NCBI GenBank assembly: GCA_045541255.1
Contig: JAZQIU010000006.1
Coordinates: forward strand, 109,504-173,503
Source: Bacilli bacterium
GTDB lineage: Bacteria; Bacillota_I; Bacilli_A; RF39; UBA660
DNA: 64,000 bases
Reading direction: 5' to 3'
Position 1 is the stretch's first letter. The number at the start of each line of letters is the position of its first letter. The position numbers were made by a program, and so were the translations under genes. This document shows, piece by piece, positions 5,663 through 60,239 of the stretch. The notes under the pieces are model-generated. The model did not search any database. It was not told where the DNA came from and was given only the letters and a program-made list of their open reading frames with translations.

Positions 5663-6409
5663 ATGAAAAATATAACATTTAAAAATCTAGATATTACAAT
5701 TAATTCTGGTGAATTAGTTGGTATTATTGGTCCTAATGCTTCAGGTAAGACTTGTCTTTTAAGAATGATTTCTGGAAGAATACAAAATGATTATATAAAT
5801 ATAGATGAAAAAAATATAAATAATTATAGTTTAGAATATAAAAGACATAATATAGTATGTGTTTTTGATGATAATATATATAATACATGTAGTGTTAGAA
5901 ATGAATTAAAGTATTATTTAGAAAAATTATATTTAGAAAAAGAAGAAATAAATAATAGAATTGATAATTTTATTGAATATTTTAATTTAGAAAATTTAAT
6001 AGATTTAGATTTTATTAATGTTAGTACTGAGAAAAGAATTTTTATTAAAGTATTATCATTATTAATAATTGAACCTAGTTTATTTTGTATAGATGATTTA
6101 TTAACATATTTAAGTAAAGATAAAAAAATTAAAATATTAAATTATATTAAAGATAAAAATATTACTTTTTTAAATGTAACAAATGATATGGAAGAACTTT
6201 TATTATTAGATAAAGTTTTAATATTAAATAAAGGTAAAAAAGTTATTTATGATAAGACTGTAAATGTTTTAGAGAATGAGAGCTTGTTTAAAGAATTAGG
6301 TATTTCATTGCCATTTATATATGATATAAATAATATGCTTAAAGATTATGATTTAATTAATGAGAATCATATTGTATATAGAGAGTTGGTGGATTTATTA
6401 TGGAAATAA
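5663..6409 (+). CDS. ABC-type ATPase (EcfA-like, divergent)
   Basis: Walker A is GPNASGKT. The signature region is degenerate (VSTEKR) and Walker B-like reads FCIDDLL. It sits directly upstream of a second ATPase-like ORF and truA, as ecfA1-ecfA2 do in Firmicutes. Confidence 0.7.
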   Translation: MKNITFKNLDITINSGELVGIIGPNASGKTCLLRMISGRIQNDYINIDEKNINNYSLEYKRHNIVCVFDDNIYNTCSVRNELKYYLEKLYLEKEEINNRIDNFIEYFNLENLIDLDFINVSTEKRIFIKVLSLLIIEPSLFCIDDLLTYLSKDKKIKILNYIKDKNITFLNVTNDMEELLLLDKVLILNKGKKVIYDKTVNVLENESLFKELGISLPFIYDINNMLKDYDLINENHIVYRELVDLLWK

Positions 6410-56242: not shown

Positions 56243-56775
56243 TATTCGTTATTTTCTTTACTTTCTTCTGGATTAGTAGGGAAATCTACTTCAAATGGAA
56301 AATTCTTTTGTTTAGTAATATCTCTTAATTGTTGTCTATATCTAGACCAATTACCATTTAAAACGTTTCCAAGTGAGCTAAATAAATCTTTTATTACCGA
56401 TAACATAGTTACGGCGTTAATTTCTTCTGGTACGGCTATACCTAATCTATCAATAAGGACATGTTTATCACTTTCAGCAAGTAATTTGTCTCTTATTGCT
56501 CTTATTTCTGCTGCTTTTTCTGCGATAAAATTGTTTTTAGCTAATTGTAGCCATGTATCAATATTATCGTTTAAATAAGCTTCTAAATCGTCTCTGTTGA
56601 TAATCTGCATTTTATATACGTAATAAGAATATAAAGTATATTCTGTACCGTCTTCTTCTGTTCTAGTAACTTCTTCTATGTCGTCAAAAAAAGCAACCTC
56701 AATTAGGTTGCCTTTTAATTCTCCAATTCTAAAGTTACCAGGTCTTATTGTGCTTTCTACCTTTTTTACTTTCAT
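56242..56775 (-). CDS. Tail-fibre-assembly / XkdW-like protein
   Basis: The C-terminal WSRYRQQLRDITKQKNFPFEVDFPTNP matches the W-x-x-YR-x-x-LRDIT...FP...P motif of phage tail-fibre assembly chaperones. Its start overlaps the RT 3' end by 41 nt. Confidence 0.5.
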   Translation of the reverse strand: MKVKKVESTIRPGNFRIGELKGNLIEVAFFDDIEEVTRTEEDGTEYTLYSYYVYKMQIINRDDLEAYLNDNIDTWLQLAKNNFIAEKAAEIRAIRDKLLAESDKHVLIDRLGIAVPEEINAVTMLSVIKDLFSSLGNVLNGNWSRYRQQLRDITKQKNFPFEVDFPTNPEESKENNE

Positions 56776-57799
56776 TTCTTATAACCTCCTTACACAATTT
56801 GTAATTAACATACGGTTTTATGTATTTTTGTTGATAATTAAATGAATTACAATGTTTTAACCAACCGCTGTAACTAAGCATGGCTGCTGCGTCGTGATAG
56901 GTTATATGATCTTTCTTAGCCATTTTCTTAGCACGCCTTTTAATTCTTAAGAAATTGCTTCTTCTAAGAGTAGTATACCCACGATAGAAACGATAACCTA
57001 AGAAATCAATAGGCCTAGACTCTGTTTTGAAAAGTTGCCAGTTTTCTTTAATACGTAACTTTTCTTTACTTAAGAAGTTGTCGATTTCTATTTTGATTTT
57101 TCTTAATTCTTTTTTGTTGTTCGAGAATAATACCATGTCGTCCATGTATCTTATATAATGTTTAACTTTTAATTGTTCTTTTATAAAATGATCTAGATCC
57201 TGTAAATAAAAATTCGCAAACCATTGACTCGTAAAATTGCCTATAGGTAGACCTTCCTGGCTACTGTCAATAATTAGATCAATAAGAAATAAAGTGTCTT
57301 TATCTTTTATAATCTTACGAAATTTATTTTTTAGAATCTCTTTGTCAATACTAGGGTAAAATTTCTTAATATCTATTTTTAAACAATATTTAGTATATTT
57401 TCTATCAGCTACTAATATCTTTTTTAAATGTCTCATGCCACGCATAATACCTCTATTTTTGATACTAGCGCAAGAAAACTCATACATGCCACGCATAATA
57501 AGCGGCTCTATCTGCAGCATTAAAGCCCAGTGAATAACCTGGTCTGGGTAAAAGCGCGGCTTAAAGATAATTCTTTCTTTTTTATTAGCACCGTCTCTTA
57601 TTTTCATTTCAACGTATGGACTAGGTCTATACGTTTTATCTTTTAATGCTTTTTGGATTTGTAAAGCGTAGTATGTAGGAGAGTCGAGTATTTTCTCAAC
57701 TGTCTTTCTAGATCCTTTACCTTTAGCAGCTTTATAAATAGCAGATTCAATATTGTTTAAATTTGTGATATTTTCATAAATGTTACCTTTTCTTTTCAT
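56735..57799 (-). CDS. DGR reverse transcriptase
   Basis: 354 aa with the RT motif 5 YMDD (IRYMDDMVLF) and the DGR-specific motif 4 [LIV]GxxxSQ (LPIGNFTSQWFAN). It lies 147 nt downstream of a template repeat. Confidence 0.92.
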   Translation of the reverse strand: MKRKGNIYENITNLNNIESAIYKAAKGKGSRKTVEKILDSPTYYALQIQKALKDKTYRPSPYVEMKIRDGANKKERIIFKPRFYPDQVIHWALMLQIEPLIMRGMYEFSCASIKNRGIMRGMRHLKKILVADRKYTKYCLKIDIKKFYPSIDKEILKNKFRKIIKDKDTLFLIDLIIDSSQEGLPIGNFTSQWFANFYLQDLDHFIKEQLKVKHYIRYMDDMVLFSNNKKELRKIKIEIDNFLSKEKLRIKENWQLFKTESRPIDFLGYRFYRGYTTLRRSNFLRIKRRAKKMAKKDHITYHDAAAMLSYSGWLKHCNSFNYQQKYIKPYVNYKLCKEVIRNESKKGRKHNKTW

Positions 57800-57946
57800 A
57801 ATTCCTGGTCCTTTTAAAATTCTTATATTTGCCTGCAGGTCTTTCGAGAAATTTCATAATGAAGATAAACCTACTAAACCCACCCAGAACGACTAATTTT
57901 TAGCAAGCGCTATGGAAAATGATGTGTAAGGATTTAATGATAAGTA
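57800..57946 (-). other. TR-to-RT spacer (probable 3' part of the DGR template RNA)
   Basis: Non-coding 147 nt between TR and the RT start. By analogy with the Bordetella phage DGR, this spacer is expected to be part of the RNA that primes cDNA synthesis. Confidence 0.45.
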
Positions 57947-58049
57947 GTCGAGCTCCGTTGTTCTCCCACGTATTCGAAGACGCGTTGTTAGCATTAAGAC
58001 ACCACAAGCCACAATAACTAGAGTCTACCCAACAACCGCCGACACGAGC
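57947..58049 (-). repeat. DGR template repeat (TR)
   Basis: A 103-bp match to the VR. In the 97-nt core, all 6 mismatches are at TR adenines on the coding strand. VR-frame translation ARVGGCWVDSSYCGLWCLNANNASSNTWENNGAR (6 AAY Asn codons). Confidence 0.9.
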
Positions 58050-58103
58050 TAATCGCTTAAGATAACGAAACACACACACCAAGTCCCTATTTTAATATAA
58101 GTG

Positions 58104-58206
58104 GTCGAGCTCCGTAGTTGCCGTTATAATTCGAAGACGTATCATTCAGCGTATAACACCACAAGCCACAATTAGTACCATTGAGCCAACGACCGCCGAC
58201 AAGTAC
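58104..58206 (-). repeat. Orphan DGR cassette C6 (VR/TR-like, 103 bp)
   Basis: Same length and conserved blocks as VR/TR. VR-frame translation VLVGGRWLNGTNCGLWCYTLNDTSSNYNGNYGAR, no stop, 6 Asn codons. Confidence 0.8.
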
Positions 58207-58257
58207 AAATCGTGAAAACTACGAGCACACACACCAAATCCCATTTTAATATAAGTG

Positions 58258-58360
58258 GTCGAGCTCCGATCGTAGCGTTGTAATTCGAAGACGCTTCGTT
58301 AAGGTTCCAATACCACAAGCCACACATAAGGGCGTCAGCCCAATTACCGCCGACAAGAGT
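58258..58360 (-). repeat. Orphan DGR cassette C5
   Basis: VR-frame translation TLVGGNWADALMCGLWYWNLNEASSNYNATIGAR, no stop, 5 Asn codons. Confidence 0.8.
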
Positions 58361-58419
58361 ATAAAAGAATAACTACACGACCAGAGGCCACACACCAAAT
58401 CCCAATTTTAAAATAAGTA

Positions 58420-58522
58420 GTCGAGCTCCGACGTTGATATTCGATAACGAAGACGCGTCATTAAAGTTCCAATACCACAAGCCAGCTTGAGAGGTATTGT
58501 TCCATCTACCGCCGACAAGAGC
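58420..58522 (-). repeat. Orphan DGR cassette C4
   Basis: VR-frame translation ALVGGRWNNTSQAGLWYWNFNDASSLSNINVGAR, no stop, 6 Asn codons. Confidence 0.8.
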
Positions 58523-58579
58523 GAATAAAGACTAAACGTTCGAAGCGCACACATCAAATCCCTAATTTTGATATAAGCG

Positions 58580-58682
58580 GTCGAGCTCCGACGTTGTTCC
58601 AAGATTCCGAAGACGCGTTTTCAATAGTAAGAGCCCACAAGCCACTACAACTGACGTCCCAGAAGCTACCGCCGACAAAAAG
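58580..58682 (-). repeat. Orphan DGR cassette C3
   Basis: VR-frame translation LFVGGSFWDVSCSGLWALTIENASSESWNNVGAR, no stop, 3 Asn codons. Confidence 0.8.
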
Positions 58683-58736
58683 CAGTAACAGAAATACGGA
58701 GCCATACACACCAAATCCCAAATTTTAATATAAGTA

Positions 58737-58839
58737 GTCGAGCTCCGACGCCTGTACCATTAGCCGAAGAAAGCTCTTCAAAGTGCCAACACCACAAGCC
58801 ACAACGAAGCGCATTATTCCAATTGCCGCCGACAAGAGC
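58737..58839 (-). repeat. Orphan DGR cassette C2
   Basis: VR-frame translation ALVGGNWNNALRCGLWCWHFEELSSANGTGVGAR, no stop, 4 Asn codons. Confidence 0.8.
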
Positions 58840-58894
58840 GAACGCTGAGAGTTAGCACGAACTATACACACCAAATCCCATTTTAATATAAGTG

Positions 58895-58997
58895 GTCGAG
58901 CTCCGACGTCGGCTACTGACTCAGAAGAATCTAGCAGCAGCAAATAACTAAATAATCCAGAACGATTATCAATACGCCAAAGACCGCCGACAAGAGC
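58895..58997 (-). repeat. Orphan DGR cassette C1
   Basis: VR-frame translation ALVGGLWRIDNRSGLFSYLLLLDSSESVADVGAR, no stop, 1 Asn codon. This is the most divergent copy (SGLF instead of CGLW). Confidence 0.75.
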
Positions 58998-59051
58998 GGA
59001 ATCAGTAGACCAACGCGAACATTACACACCATGCCCTAAAAAATAAATTTA

Positions 59052-59137
59052 GCGGCTCCGACTACAGTCGGTATAATAATTATTTTTATTTATGGGAGGC
59101 TGGCCGCCCCCAAACCCCCGCTAACTGGTTTTAAGAA
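59052..59137 (-). promoter_or_regulatory. VR-specific 3' flank: GC-rich island plus small hairpin (candidate IMH/target-recognition element)
   Basis: Directly after the stop codon lies cgggggtttgggggcggccagcctccc (59094-59121, coding strand), very GC-rich in an AT-rich context. A hairpin CCGAC-TGTA-GTCGG follows at 59058-59071. The segment is absent downstream of TR and of all six cassettes. Confidence 0.5.
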
Positions 59138-60239
59138 GTCGAGCTCCGCTGACCTCCCACGTAAGCGAAGACGCGTTGTTAGCATTAAGACACCACAAGC
59201 CACAATAACTAGAGTCCACCCAACAACCGCCGACAAGAGCGATTCTATTTCCTGGATTACACCAGTAATAATCTGTAGTGTAAGTATCACTACTACCACC
59301 TACTTTAGTAGGGAAAGCAACTAACGGATTCTTAGAATCGTAACCTAACTCTGTAATATAACTACCACCAGTAGAACTATTTACATAGCCAACTTTCTCA
59401 TAATCTCCGTCAAAGACGTCGCTTGCGTAAGAAGTAGGATTATAACAGATATAAGCTTCATATTCTGATATATTAACACCGTCTAAGAATTGCCATATAT
59501 TACCGAATATATCTTCAATTCCACGATAGATAACAGATCCTTTATCAGTACCTGTAGCACTTCCAGATTTCATACCTAAACTATTGCAGCCACCACTATT
59601 TAAAGCAGCAGTATTGCTTCCGTTAGTATAACCTGGTCCTAATTTTGACTGAGAATTATAATCAGCATATTCAACTAAATATAATAATTGAATTAGGAAA
59701 TAATGCCAGTCTAATTGGTGCCAGCCACTACCTAGATTTTTAGCGTATGTTCTAAAGTCTGCTATAGTTTTACTTACTAAAGGAGCATAACCACTACGAC
59801 TATAAACTCCGTCGCTTGATCCAGACATAGTATAACGTCCGATCATAAATTCTTTACTTCTAGTAAAGCCACTTAAATTATCTTTAGAGATAAGTACATA
59901 TTCGTAACCGTAAGACACATACCTCTTATAATAGAATTCTGGTATTATTGTCATTACTTGACCGTTACTACCTGTAAAGGAAAAATTAGCGTCGCCATAA
60001 TAAGCAACTATCTTTTTATTAGTATTATCATAATTACAAGTGATTATATCACTCCATGGGTAAATACTATCAAAGTCGTTTCTTACTGCAGTAGTACCAA
60101 CTTGAGCGTTAGCTACTAAACCTACGGCGTCCTCAATTCTTTCCCAAGCAGACGAAGCAGAACTTATTTTACGTCTTACTCCGTATACTTTACTTAAATT
60201 GTTCGATTTCTTTTCTCGAACATTTATTACACCTAACAT
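59121..60239 (-). CDS. DGR target protein: tail fibre / receptor-binding protein with C-terminal lectin (FGE-sulfatase-like) fold
   Basis: 372 aa in the tail-fibre position. It carries the FGE/CLec-like motif YRGIEDIFGNIWQFLDG, and its C-terminus GGCW...CGLWC...GARL carries the VR. Confidence 0.88.
   Translation of the reverse strand: MLGVINVREKKSNNLSKVYGVRRKISSASSAWERIEDAVGLVANAQVGTTAVRNDFDSIYPWSDIITCNYDNTNKKIVAYYGDANFSFTGSNGQVMTIIPEFYYKRYVSYGYEYVLISKDNLSGFTRSKEFMIGRYTMSGSSDGVYSRSGYAPLVSKTIADFRTYAKNLGSGWHQLDWHYFLIQLLYLVEYADYNSQSKLGPGYTNGSNTAALNSGGCNSLGMKSGSATGTDKGSVIYRGIEDIFGNIWQFLDGVNISEYEAYICYNPTSYASDVFDGDYEKVGYVNSSTGGSYITELGYDSKNPLVAFPTKVGGSSDTYTTDYYWCNPGNRIALVGGCWVDSSYCGLWCLNANNASSLTWEVSGARLLKTS
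59138..59240 (-). repeat. DGR variable repeat (VR), 3' end of the target gene
   Basis: 103-bp counterpart of the TR, encoding ALVGGCWVDSSYCGLWCLNANNASSLTWEVSGAR. It differs from the TR at adenine positions only within the core. Confidence 0.9.

Follow-up and report, generated by a model that had tools for sequence, protein, structure and literature searches.

A conserved hairpin-bearing flank is the probable recipient mark of a prophage DGR with one target and seven templates

The DGR of this prophage holds eight copies of one repeat, a single recipient (VR) and seven donors, and the question raised by the locus is what makes one of these copies the target. The VR, the RT-proximal template (TR) and the six cassettes C1-C6 are each exactly 105 nt long and align without gaps, and all eight have in common a 5' block, CTTGTCGGCGG, and a 3' block, GGAGCTCGAC. 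With both homology ends shared, the cDNA of any template could therefore anneal to any repeat, and GGAGCTCGAC, being present in all eight, cannot discriminate recipient from donor. The only cis feature that separates the recipient from its seven donors is the flank that follows it, which makes the locus a clean, naturally occurring case in which to study how a DGR target is defined. We propose that a stretch of about 55 nt, found after the VR alone, is very probably the cis-acting recipient mark of this DGR.

The window (the whole 64-kb stretch of DNA analysed) carries the locus on its minus strand (Table 1), within a siphovirus-type prophage, where Dit, Tal and tail genes lie upstream of the locus and a CHAP+CW_7 lysin lies downstream. 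The reverse transcriptase (RT) has the DGR-type motif combination [LIV]GxxxSQ and YxDD. The RT-18 motif is present as a single copy serving seven templates, and is likely the structured spacer or priming RNA of this DGR clade. All of the mismatches between the cores of VR and TR (6/6) fall at template adenines, as they do in two-unit relatives, where the counts range from 7/7 to 19/19. For Avd (PF05635-like), the neighbouring ORFs gave no Pfam or NCBIfam match, and no PF05635 was found in the whole 92.7%-complete assembly. DGRs of this RT clade seem to manage with no recognisable Avd, and Avd-less DGRs may exist. No second VR-like target was found in the genome, the target protein has no Pfam, NCBIfam or PDB sequence match, and in deposited phages the flank is unmatched, the whole locus being matched at the RT level only.

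Table 1 Coordinates of the features of the DGR locus in the window.
Feature	Position	Strand	Details
Target ORF, tail fibre	59121-60239	minus	372 aa; stop TAG 59123-59121
VR, recipient repeat	59138..59242	minus	105 nt; last 35 codons of target
GGAGCTCGAC, GC-rich 3' homology end	59138..59147	minus	like the GC block of an IMH
TTCTTAAAACCAG, VR-specific flank (TTCTT...ACCAG)	59125..59137	minus	
CGGGGG, first G-run	59115..59120	minus	3 nt upstream of GC hairpin
CGGGGGTTTGGGGGCGGCCAGCCTCCC	59120-59094	minus	straight after the stop codon
GC hairpin, proposed recipient-marking inverted repeat	59095..59111	minus	5' arm GGGGGC 59111-59106, loop GGCCA 59105-59101, 3' arm GCCTCC 59100-59095; from sequence comparison
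C plus A/T-rich tract CATAAATAAAAATAATTATTATA	59072..59094	minus	
Hairpin 2, CCGAC-TGTA-GTCGG	59058..59071	minus	followed by AGCCGC 59057-59052
GGGCATGGTGTGT, first copy of 5'-arm motif	59024..59036	minus	start of C1 donor module
Cassettes C1-C6, alternative templates	58104..58999	minus	all without GC hairpin
TR, RT-proximal template	57947..58051 (58051-57947)	minus	donor of the present VR
RT-18 RNA motif (Rfam RF03021)	57822..57912	minus	between TR and RT; 60.2 bits vs gathering score 41.3
DGR reverse transcriptase	56735..57799	minus	354-aa ORF; RVT_1 6.6e-19; IGNFTSQ, YMDD

The original prediction, made from the sequence alone, held that a GC-rich segment follows the VR and none of the other copies. 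Its letters and coordinates are right, with all features on the minus strand, and the claim holds at every scale covered. The GC motif, searched as G[AG]GG[GA][CT]G[GA][CT]A?[CT]A[GA][CT]C[CT], has a single occurrence in the 64-kb window and likewise a single one in the 1.37-Mb assembly. It never follows a cassette or a TR, either in the window or in 80 related loci (numbered L001 onwards) that an RT-based scan returned from gut and rumen Bacillota MAGs. The asymmetry is also apparent in the spacers, which measure 138 nt from VR to C1 vs 49-57 nt for the six cassette spacers, an excess of about 80-90 bases on the VR side.

Conservation in relatives, which the original prediction had named as a check, bears it out: the motif is found exactly once per locus in 54 of the 80 related loci, and it persists to 48% RT identity. 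It is located 27-32 nt after the VR wherever a VR is detected; where none is detected, its distance ahead of the TR end is about 225-330 nt. Most of the motif-less loci are truncated upstream of the RT, carry a variant missed by the regular expression (as in L002, with one mismatch), have no separate VR (as in L012 and L078, which give no match to the expression) or have a distant RT; several of the distant-RT loci carry other G5...C5 hairpins.

The same relatives point to a conserved structure. In an alignment of 25 sequences, the helix occupies columns 41-48/55-62 with 87% of its cells paired, and five of the eight pairs have changed on both sides (C:G to T:A, G:C to A:T). The covariation score of these 25 sequences was reached by 0-1 of 500 shuffles, every slid register scored worse, and RNAalifold independently predicts the same 6-bp core of the GC stem. 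The window sequence folded alone as ssDNA gives -5.9 kcal/mol, not better than shuffles (z = 0.04), and the case for the GC hairpin therefore rests on the comparison with relatives; hairpin 2, treated likewise, gives -4.3 kcal/mol (z = -2.25, 5 of 200 shuffles). Among 48 distinct flanks, the stem is GGGGGC/GCCTCC in 28, GGGGGT/ACCCCC in 8 and GGGGGC/GCCCCC in 6, with GGGGAC/GTCCCC (2) and GAGGGC/GCCCTC (1) as rarer forms, and the loop is GGCCA (19), GGTCA (15), GACCA (12) or the 6-nt GGCATA (2). The core stem of the window has 6 bp, or 7 if a bulged T is allowed; in relatives it has 7-9 bp. The same element, in the form G5-N3-GGGGGC-GGCCA-GCCCCC, follows the VR stop codon in the single-template DGR of the cultured Marasmitruncus massiliensis Marseille-P3646, at 48% RT identity. 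The GC-rich island after the VR is thus the conserved hairpin itself, with a covarying stem and a conserved GRYCA loop.

Constraint extends from the hairpin back to the end of the VR. TTCTT, directly after the VR unit, is 100% conserved in 22 distinct VR flanks, and the templates have [CT]ACTTAT at this position. In some relatives the VR and TR flanks both read TTCTTA, so recognition must reach further downstream. There, ACCAG is conserved across three reading frames, which give the tails ...KTS*, ...KYQ*/RNQ* and ...FIPV*; a motif kept in three frames indicates a constraint acting on DNA and not on protein. The G-run CGGGGG is near-invariant in the 25-sequence alignment and degenerate in L044 and L045. 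Judged from these alignments, the recipient-specific element is composite, consisting of TTCTT, N4-5, ACCAG, the stop codon, the G-run, N3 and the hairpin. A G-quadruplex reading of this flank was rejected, as it has only two long G-runs. We also rejected the idea that the G-runs pair with, or mimic, the G-rich part of the RT-18 motif (CUGGGUGGGUUUAG), since L006 and L023 alter this RNA segment with the flank unchanged.

One sister locus has an unusual flank. The only two differences between L001 and the window over 1341 nt past the VR lie in this flank (L001:230-300, TTCTAAAAACCAGTGAG). One of them turns the stop TAG into GAG, with which the ORF would extend across the GC hairpin and end at a TAA past hairpin 2. 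The L001 VR has three non-adenine changes besides, and these oddities may reflect a mixed-population consensus.

Elements of this kind have been characterised in phage DGRs. GC-rich stems of 7-10 bp with 4-nt GRNA loops are located 4-34 bp downstream of phage VRs, and in the BPP-1 element the stem structure is required with its sequence free to vary, and the loop sequence is required as well (Guo et al. 2011, PMC3240598). In the Bordetella phage BPP-1 DGR, the counterpart of the window's GC hairpin is the GC-rich inverted repeat that lies downstream of the IMH. The two agree in place, composition, distance and pattern of constraint: the window hairpin follows the VR and its stop codon and is absent from the template; its stem is GC-rich and varies in sequence with pairing kept; its loop is conserved and likewise begins with G and ends with A; and it starts 26 nt from the VR (between the VR end at 59138 and the stem start at 59111), inside the range of 4-34 bp, adjoining a GC-rich homology end shared with the template. 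They differ in that the loop has 5 nt (GRYCA) and not 4 (GRNA), and the core stem has 6-7 bp (up to 9 in relatives) and not 7-10. The window flank also differs from BPP-1 in its additional upstream G-run and invariant TTCTT...ACCAG, and in that it has to tell one recipient from seven donors instead of a single donor, with no Avd gene detected.

The 3' end of the repeats can be compared in the same way with the IMH and IMH* of other DGRs. According to Wu et al., the IMH* of the TR has no inverted repeat after it, a difference which distinguishes donor from recipient; such inverted repeats occur in 34% of DGRs, and recognition beyond the IMH has been inferred for DGRs whose IMH and IMH* are identical (PMC5758913). 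Like an IMH, GGAGCTCGAC is the 3' limit of A-mutagenesis and is common to VR and templates, and the bases that follow it differ, TTCTTA in the VR vs [CT]ACTTAT in the templates; unlike in those systems, the shared part here is just 10 nt plus CTTA. In L001 and L005 the VR carries a mutation at the adenine of GGAGCTCGAC, so the cDNA-derived sequence extends into this block. The element is very probably the recipient mark expected of a DGR, a known kind of signal with a variant loop. For a large clade of gut Bacillota phages the signal is now refined by the GRYCA loop, the invariant TTCTT, the three-frame ACCAG and the fixed spacing from the VR.

Two other readings of the hairpins have to be weighed against this. 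The GC hairpin could be an intrinsic terminator or mRNA 3' stabiliser of the tail-fibre gene, unrelated to retrohoming; it is a GC-rich stem-loop that begins 10 nt past the stop codon, and a terminator role has been considered for some DGR inverted repeats (PMC5758913). We nevertheless find this very unlikely, as the tail is A-rich (CCCATAAATAAAAATAA) with no U-run, both in the window and in all of the related flanks that were aligned or listed, a terminator scan makes no call on the GC hairpin, and the RT, tail-chaperone and lysis genes continue on the same strand. Nor would a terminator need a conserved loop, an invariant TTCTT...ACCAG or a fixed distance of 27-32 nt from the VR. The other reading is the mapping made in the original prediction, in which the GC island is the IMH and hairpin 2 is the counterpart of the BPP-1 cruciform. 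Two properties of hairpin 2 suit this: its stem covaries, with compensatory variants AATCGAC/GTCGATT, CCGCCT/AGGCGG, TTCGAC/GTCGAA and ATCGCC/GGCGAT, and its loops include GTAA (L015, L017, L019) and GAAA (L004, L014, L016), the latter being the BPP-1 loop. However, it lies 48-66 nt after the VR end (66 nt in the window), a position conserved among relatives of 75% RT identity or more and beyond the 4-34 bp of known elements (PMC3240598). Its stem measures 5-7 bp, its loop lacks conservation (TGTA, GAA, TAA, ATTA, TTTA, GTTA, GAAA, GTAA), and in deeper clades an A/T hairpin plus T-run takes its place, whereas the GC hairpin persists to 48% RT identity. Moreover, an IMH belongs to the homology between TR and VR, which the GC island does not; the IMH-like block is GGAGCTCGAC, common to the eight repeats, and the GC island is the GC-rich inverted repeat. 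We therefore give this mapping little credence, on both of its assignments. By comparison with its relatives, the CCGAC hairpin is better described as a separate, second, clade-limited element, less conserved than the GC hairpin; it may delimit the first donor transcript at its 5' end, or make that end more stable.

The original prediction also placed the GC island and hairpin inside a duplicated GTCGGAGC junction, and on this reading the segment is a secondary insertion, a mobile element or recombination scar, in a cassette junction. An 8-nt match to GTCGGAGC does link 59062-59055 with the cassette ends, and the distal spacer looks like a cassette linker. The match, however, arises in 27 of 2000 shuffles and is only mildly unusual, the conserved 3' arm of hairpin 2 accounts for five of the eight bases, what comes after that arm varies from lineage to lineage, and the 8-mer is not conserved, relatives showing GTCGGCGACGC, GTCGGTCGAGC, GGCGGTAGC or GTCGATTAT at this place. 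The history of the arrays runs against an insertion as well. A profile of the 105-nt unit, run on the relatives, shows arrays of 3-9 units in the nearest of them and plain VR+TR pairs in the others. In single-template relatives, the VR-to-TR spacer is 132-146 nt long and matches the VR-to-C1 spacer of the window in layout as well as length, with the order coding tail, GC hairpin, A/T tract, hairpin 2, 5'-arm GGGATTTGRTGTGT, leader and template. Hairpin 2 is likewise found in the two-unit DGRs L014, L015, L018 and L021, which have no cassette junction at all. The RT tree groups the arrays with at least three units in a single derived clade (17 rows, support 94/95), and the two-unit DGRs among which it is nested carry the same flank; the arrays being derived within DGRs that share it, the flank is therefore ancestral. 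The element being single-copy in the genome and ancestral in two-unit relatives, we rejected the mobile element or scar, which we consider extremely improbable, and with it the duplicated junction, against which speak the two-unit relatives, the unconserved 8-mer and the shuffles. On this phylogeny, the cassettes were added later, downstream of the flank, and nothing was inserted at the VR.

Some spacers record further changes in the arrays. Truncated cassette remnants, comprising the 3' end of a unit and a linker with TATAAT and the 5' arm, are present in VR-to-first-template spacers at L009:4986-5263, L017:1602-1827 and L019:5381-5606, and indicate cassette decay beside the flank. In L012 (5700-5860), the target ORF continues directly into the TR (...GGGGCTCGTCTACTTATATGA), without separate VR, GC hairpin or spacer, and this locus looks like a DGR collapsed via deletion between the VR and TR direct repeats.

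If the flank marks the recipient, the flanked repeat should be the one which is rewritten, and near-identical contigs from different samples allow this to be seen. Between the window and L001, the seven templates have no differences and the 1341 nt past the VR have two, vs 36 of 97 positions in the VR; the L001 VR was copied from C6, not TR. In L090, L091, L093 and L094, found by their exact flank pattern, there is full identity over the 600 nt upstream, with 0-1 differences in the 828 nt downstream, and the VRs differ at 34-36 of 97 positions. The VRs of this family go back to u1 (with 7/7 changes at A), to u2 (with 5/5 at A), to u3 (without any change) and to a lost template. The last case is L094, whose VR is a 7/7 adenine-only copy of L006 u6, a template missing from its own four-template array; templates can thus be lost after use, and the arrays are dynamic. 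The L011 VR comes from u1, with 11/11 changes at A, and the VRs of L008 and L009 are mosaics, in which the terminal unit supplied the 5' part and u1 or u3 the 3' part, again with A-only changes. Taking all arrays together, the signature of an A-only product is carried by 9 of 13 flanked units vs 1 of 61 unflanked units. These natural comparisons support a recipient role for the flanked repeat, with rare exceptions. The claim that a VR-specific 3' flank marks the recipient and leaves the array as donors is supported by all this, the flank being unique, conserved and covarying, and the repeat beside it rewritten.

The stronger claim, that the VR is the sole acceptor, is nearly right without being absolute, the exceptions being L008 u3 and the u3 of the L090 family. 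L008 u3 (L008:5572-5676), which has no hairpin, is a 10/10 adenine-only copy of u1 (L008:5262-5366), and may have arisen either by rare homing into a donor or as an archived used VR. In the L090 family, u3 is a template of the L006 u7 type in A-mutagenised form (8/9 at A), and in L094 this u3 has a single A-to-C change. From such A-mutagenised unflanked cassettes it follows that the mark is strong without being absolute, or that VR content can be recopied into the array by recombination. L093 (reverse strand) presents a different exception, its VR being identical to u3 even though u3 has 14 adenines. This implies a non-mutagenic copy beside the mutagenic route, by gene conversion or from an archived VR, and this second route may not need the flank. 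Deletion of the stem-loop impairs retrohoming severely but not completely (PMC12875486), and a leaky mark fits this incomplete loss. Leakiness over evolutionary time bears on the growth of template libraries and on the engineering of DGRs for chosen sites.

We envisage the following mechanism. The cDNA of any template would end in the complement of GGAGCTCGAC and could pair with any repeat. We infer that the flank folds into its structure at the DNA level and that the target thereby becomes accessible or can be recognised, leading to integration at the VR. By analogy with BPP-1, the inverted repeat might be extruded as a hairpin or cruciform, or might keep the target open while it is replicated, and with the flank in place cDNA integration at the IMH-like end beside it might rise by orders of magnitude. 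Transfer of information would then run from the templates to the VR and almost never in reverse. A 5'-side crossover at internal homology such as GGCTTGTGGTGTTGG could produce the mosaic VRs. The donors would be marked otherwise, by a 5'-arm motif before each of them that can pair with ACACATCATTTTCC after TR.

Going beyond this, the composite flank (TTCTT-ACCAG-G5-N3-GRYCA hairpin) could be a portable "write here" signal which alone sets the polarity of one recipient and many donors without Avd, with bypass or VR gene conversion archiving used VRs as templates. This is a tentative proposal, which we doubt slightly more than we believe. If it is true, the flank moved behind any cassette would turn that cassette into an acceptor, and the donor library itself evolves.

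The arrangement recalls a bacterial antigen system. In Neisseria, a G4-forming sequence is located upstream of the expressed recipient pilE, which has many silent pilS donors, and transfer between them is a RecA-dependent gene conversion. The likeness is one of outline, namely one expressed recipient, many silent donors and a cis DNA structure setting the direction of transfer, but a DGR uses reverse transcription with adenine mutagenesis and the window locus is not a member of that system. Group IIC introns offer a parallel among retroelements, as they target terminator stem-loops, recognising a GC-rich DNA stem-loop too and acting beside it (PMC3240598), but here there is no intron, insertion or U-tract, and it is the adjacent repeat that is replaced.

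The donor side has features of its own. The 5'-arm GGGATTTGRTGTGT precedes every template and can pair with the single ACACATCATTTTCC after TR (57915-57928 in the window, for example with 58866-58879). The 50 nt upstream of each template pair with the 40 nt after TR, whereas the sequence upstream of the VR does not. The duplex energies are -17.7 to -21.7 kcal/mol for u2-u7 and -16.3 kcal/mol for u1, vs about -10 to -13 kcal/mol for shuffles. In L050 (5785-5800 with 5913-5928), both arms are swapped for a fully compensating pair, GGGTTCCGGAGCGC/GCGTTCCGGAATCC. The support taken for this long-range helix consists of the duplex energies in the window and the compensated version in L050, and the helix probably frames the template RNA. 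The cassettes also have an end of their own, GTCGGAGCTCGAC (58895-58907, 58737-58749 and 58420-58432, minus strand), a small inverted repeat followed by a T-rich linker, which the scan calls terminator-like; the present VR and TR are without its first GTCGG arm.
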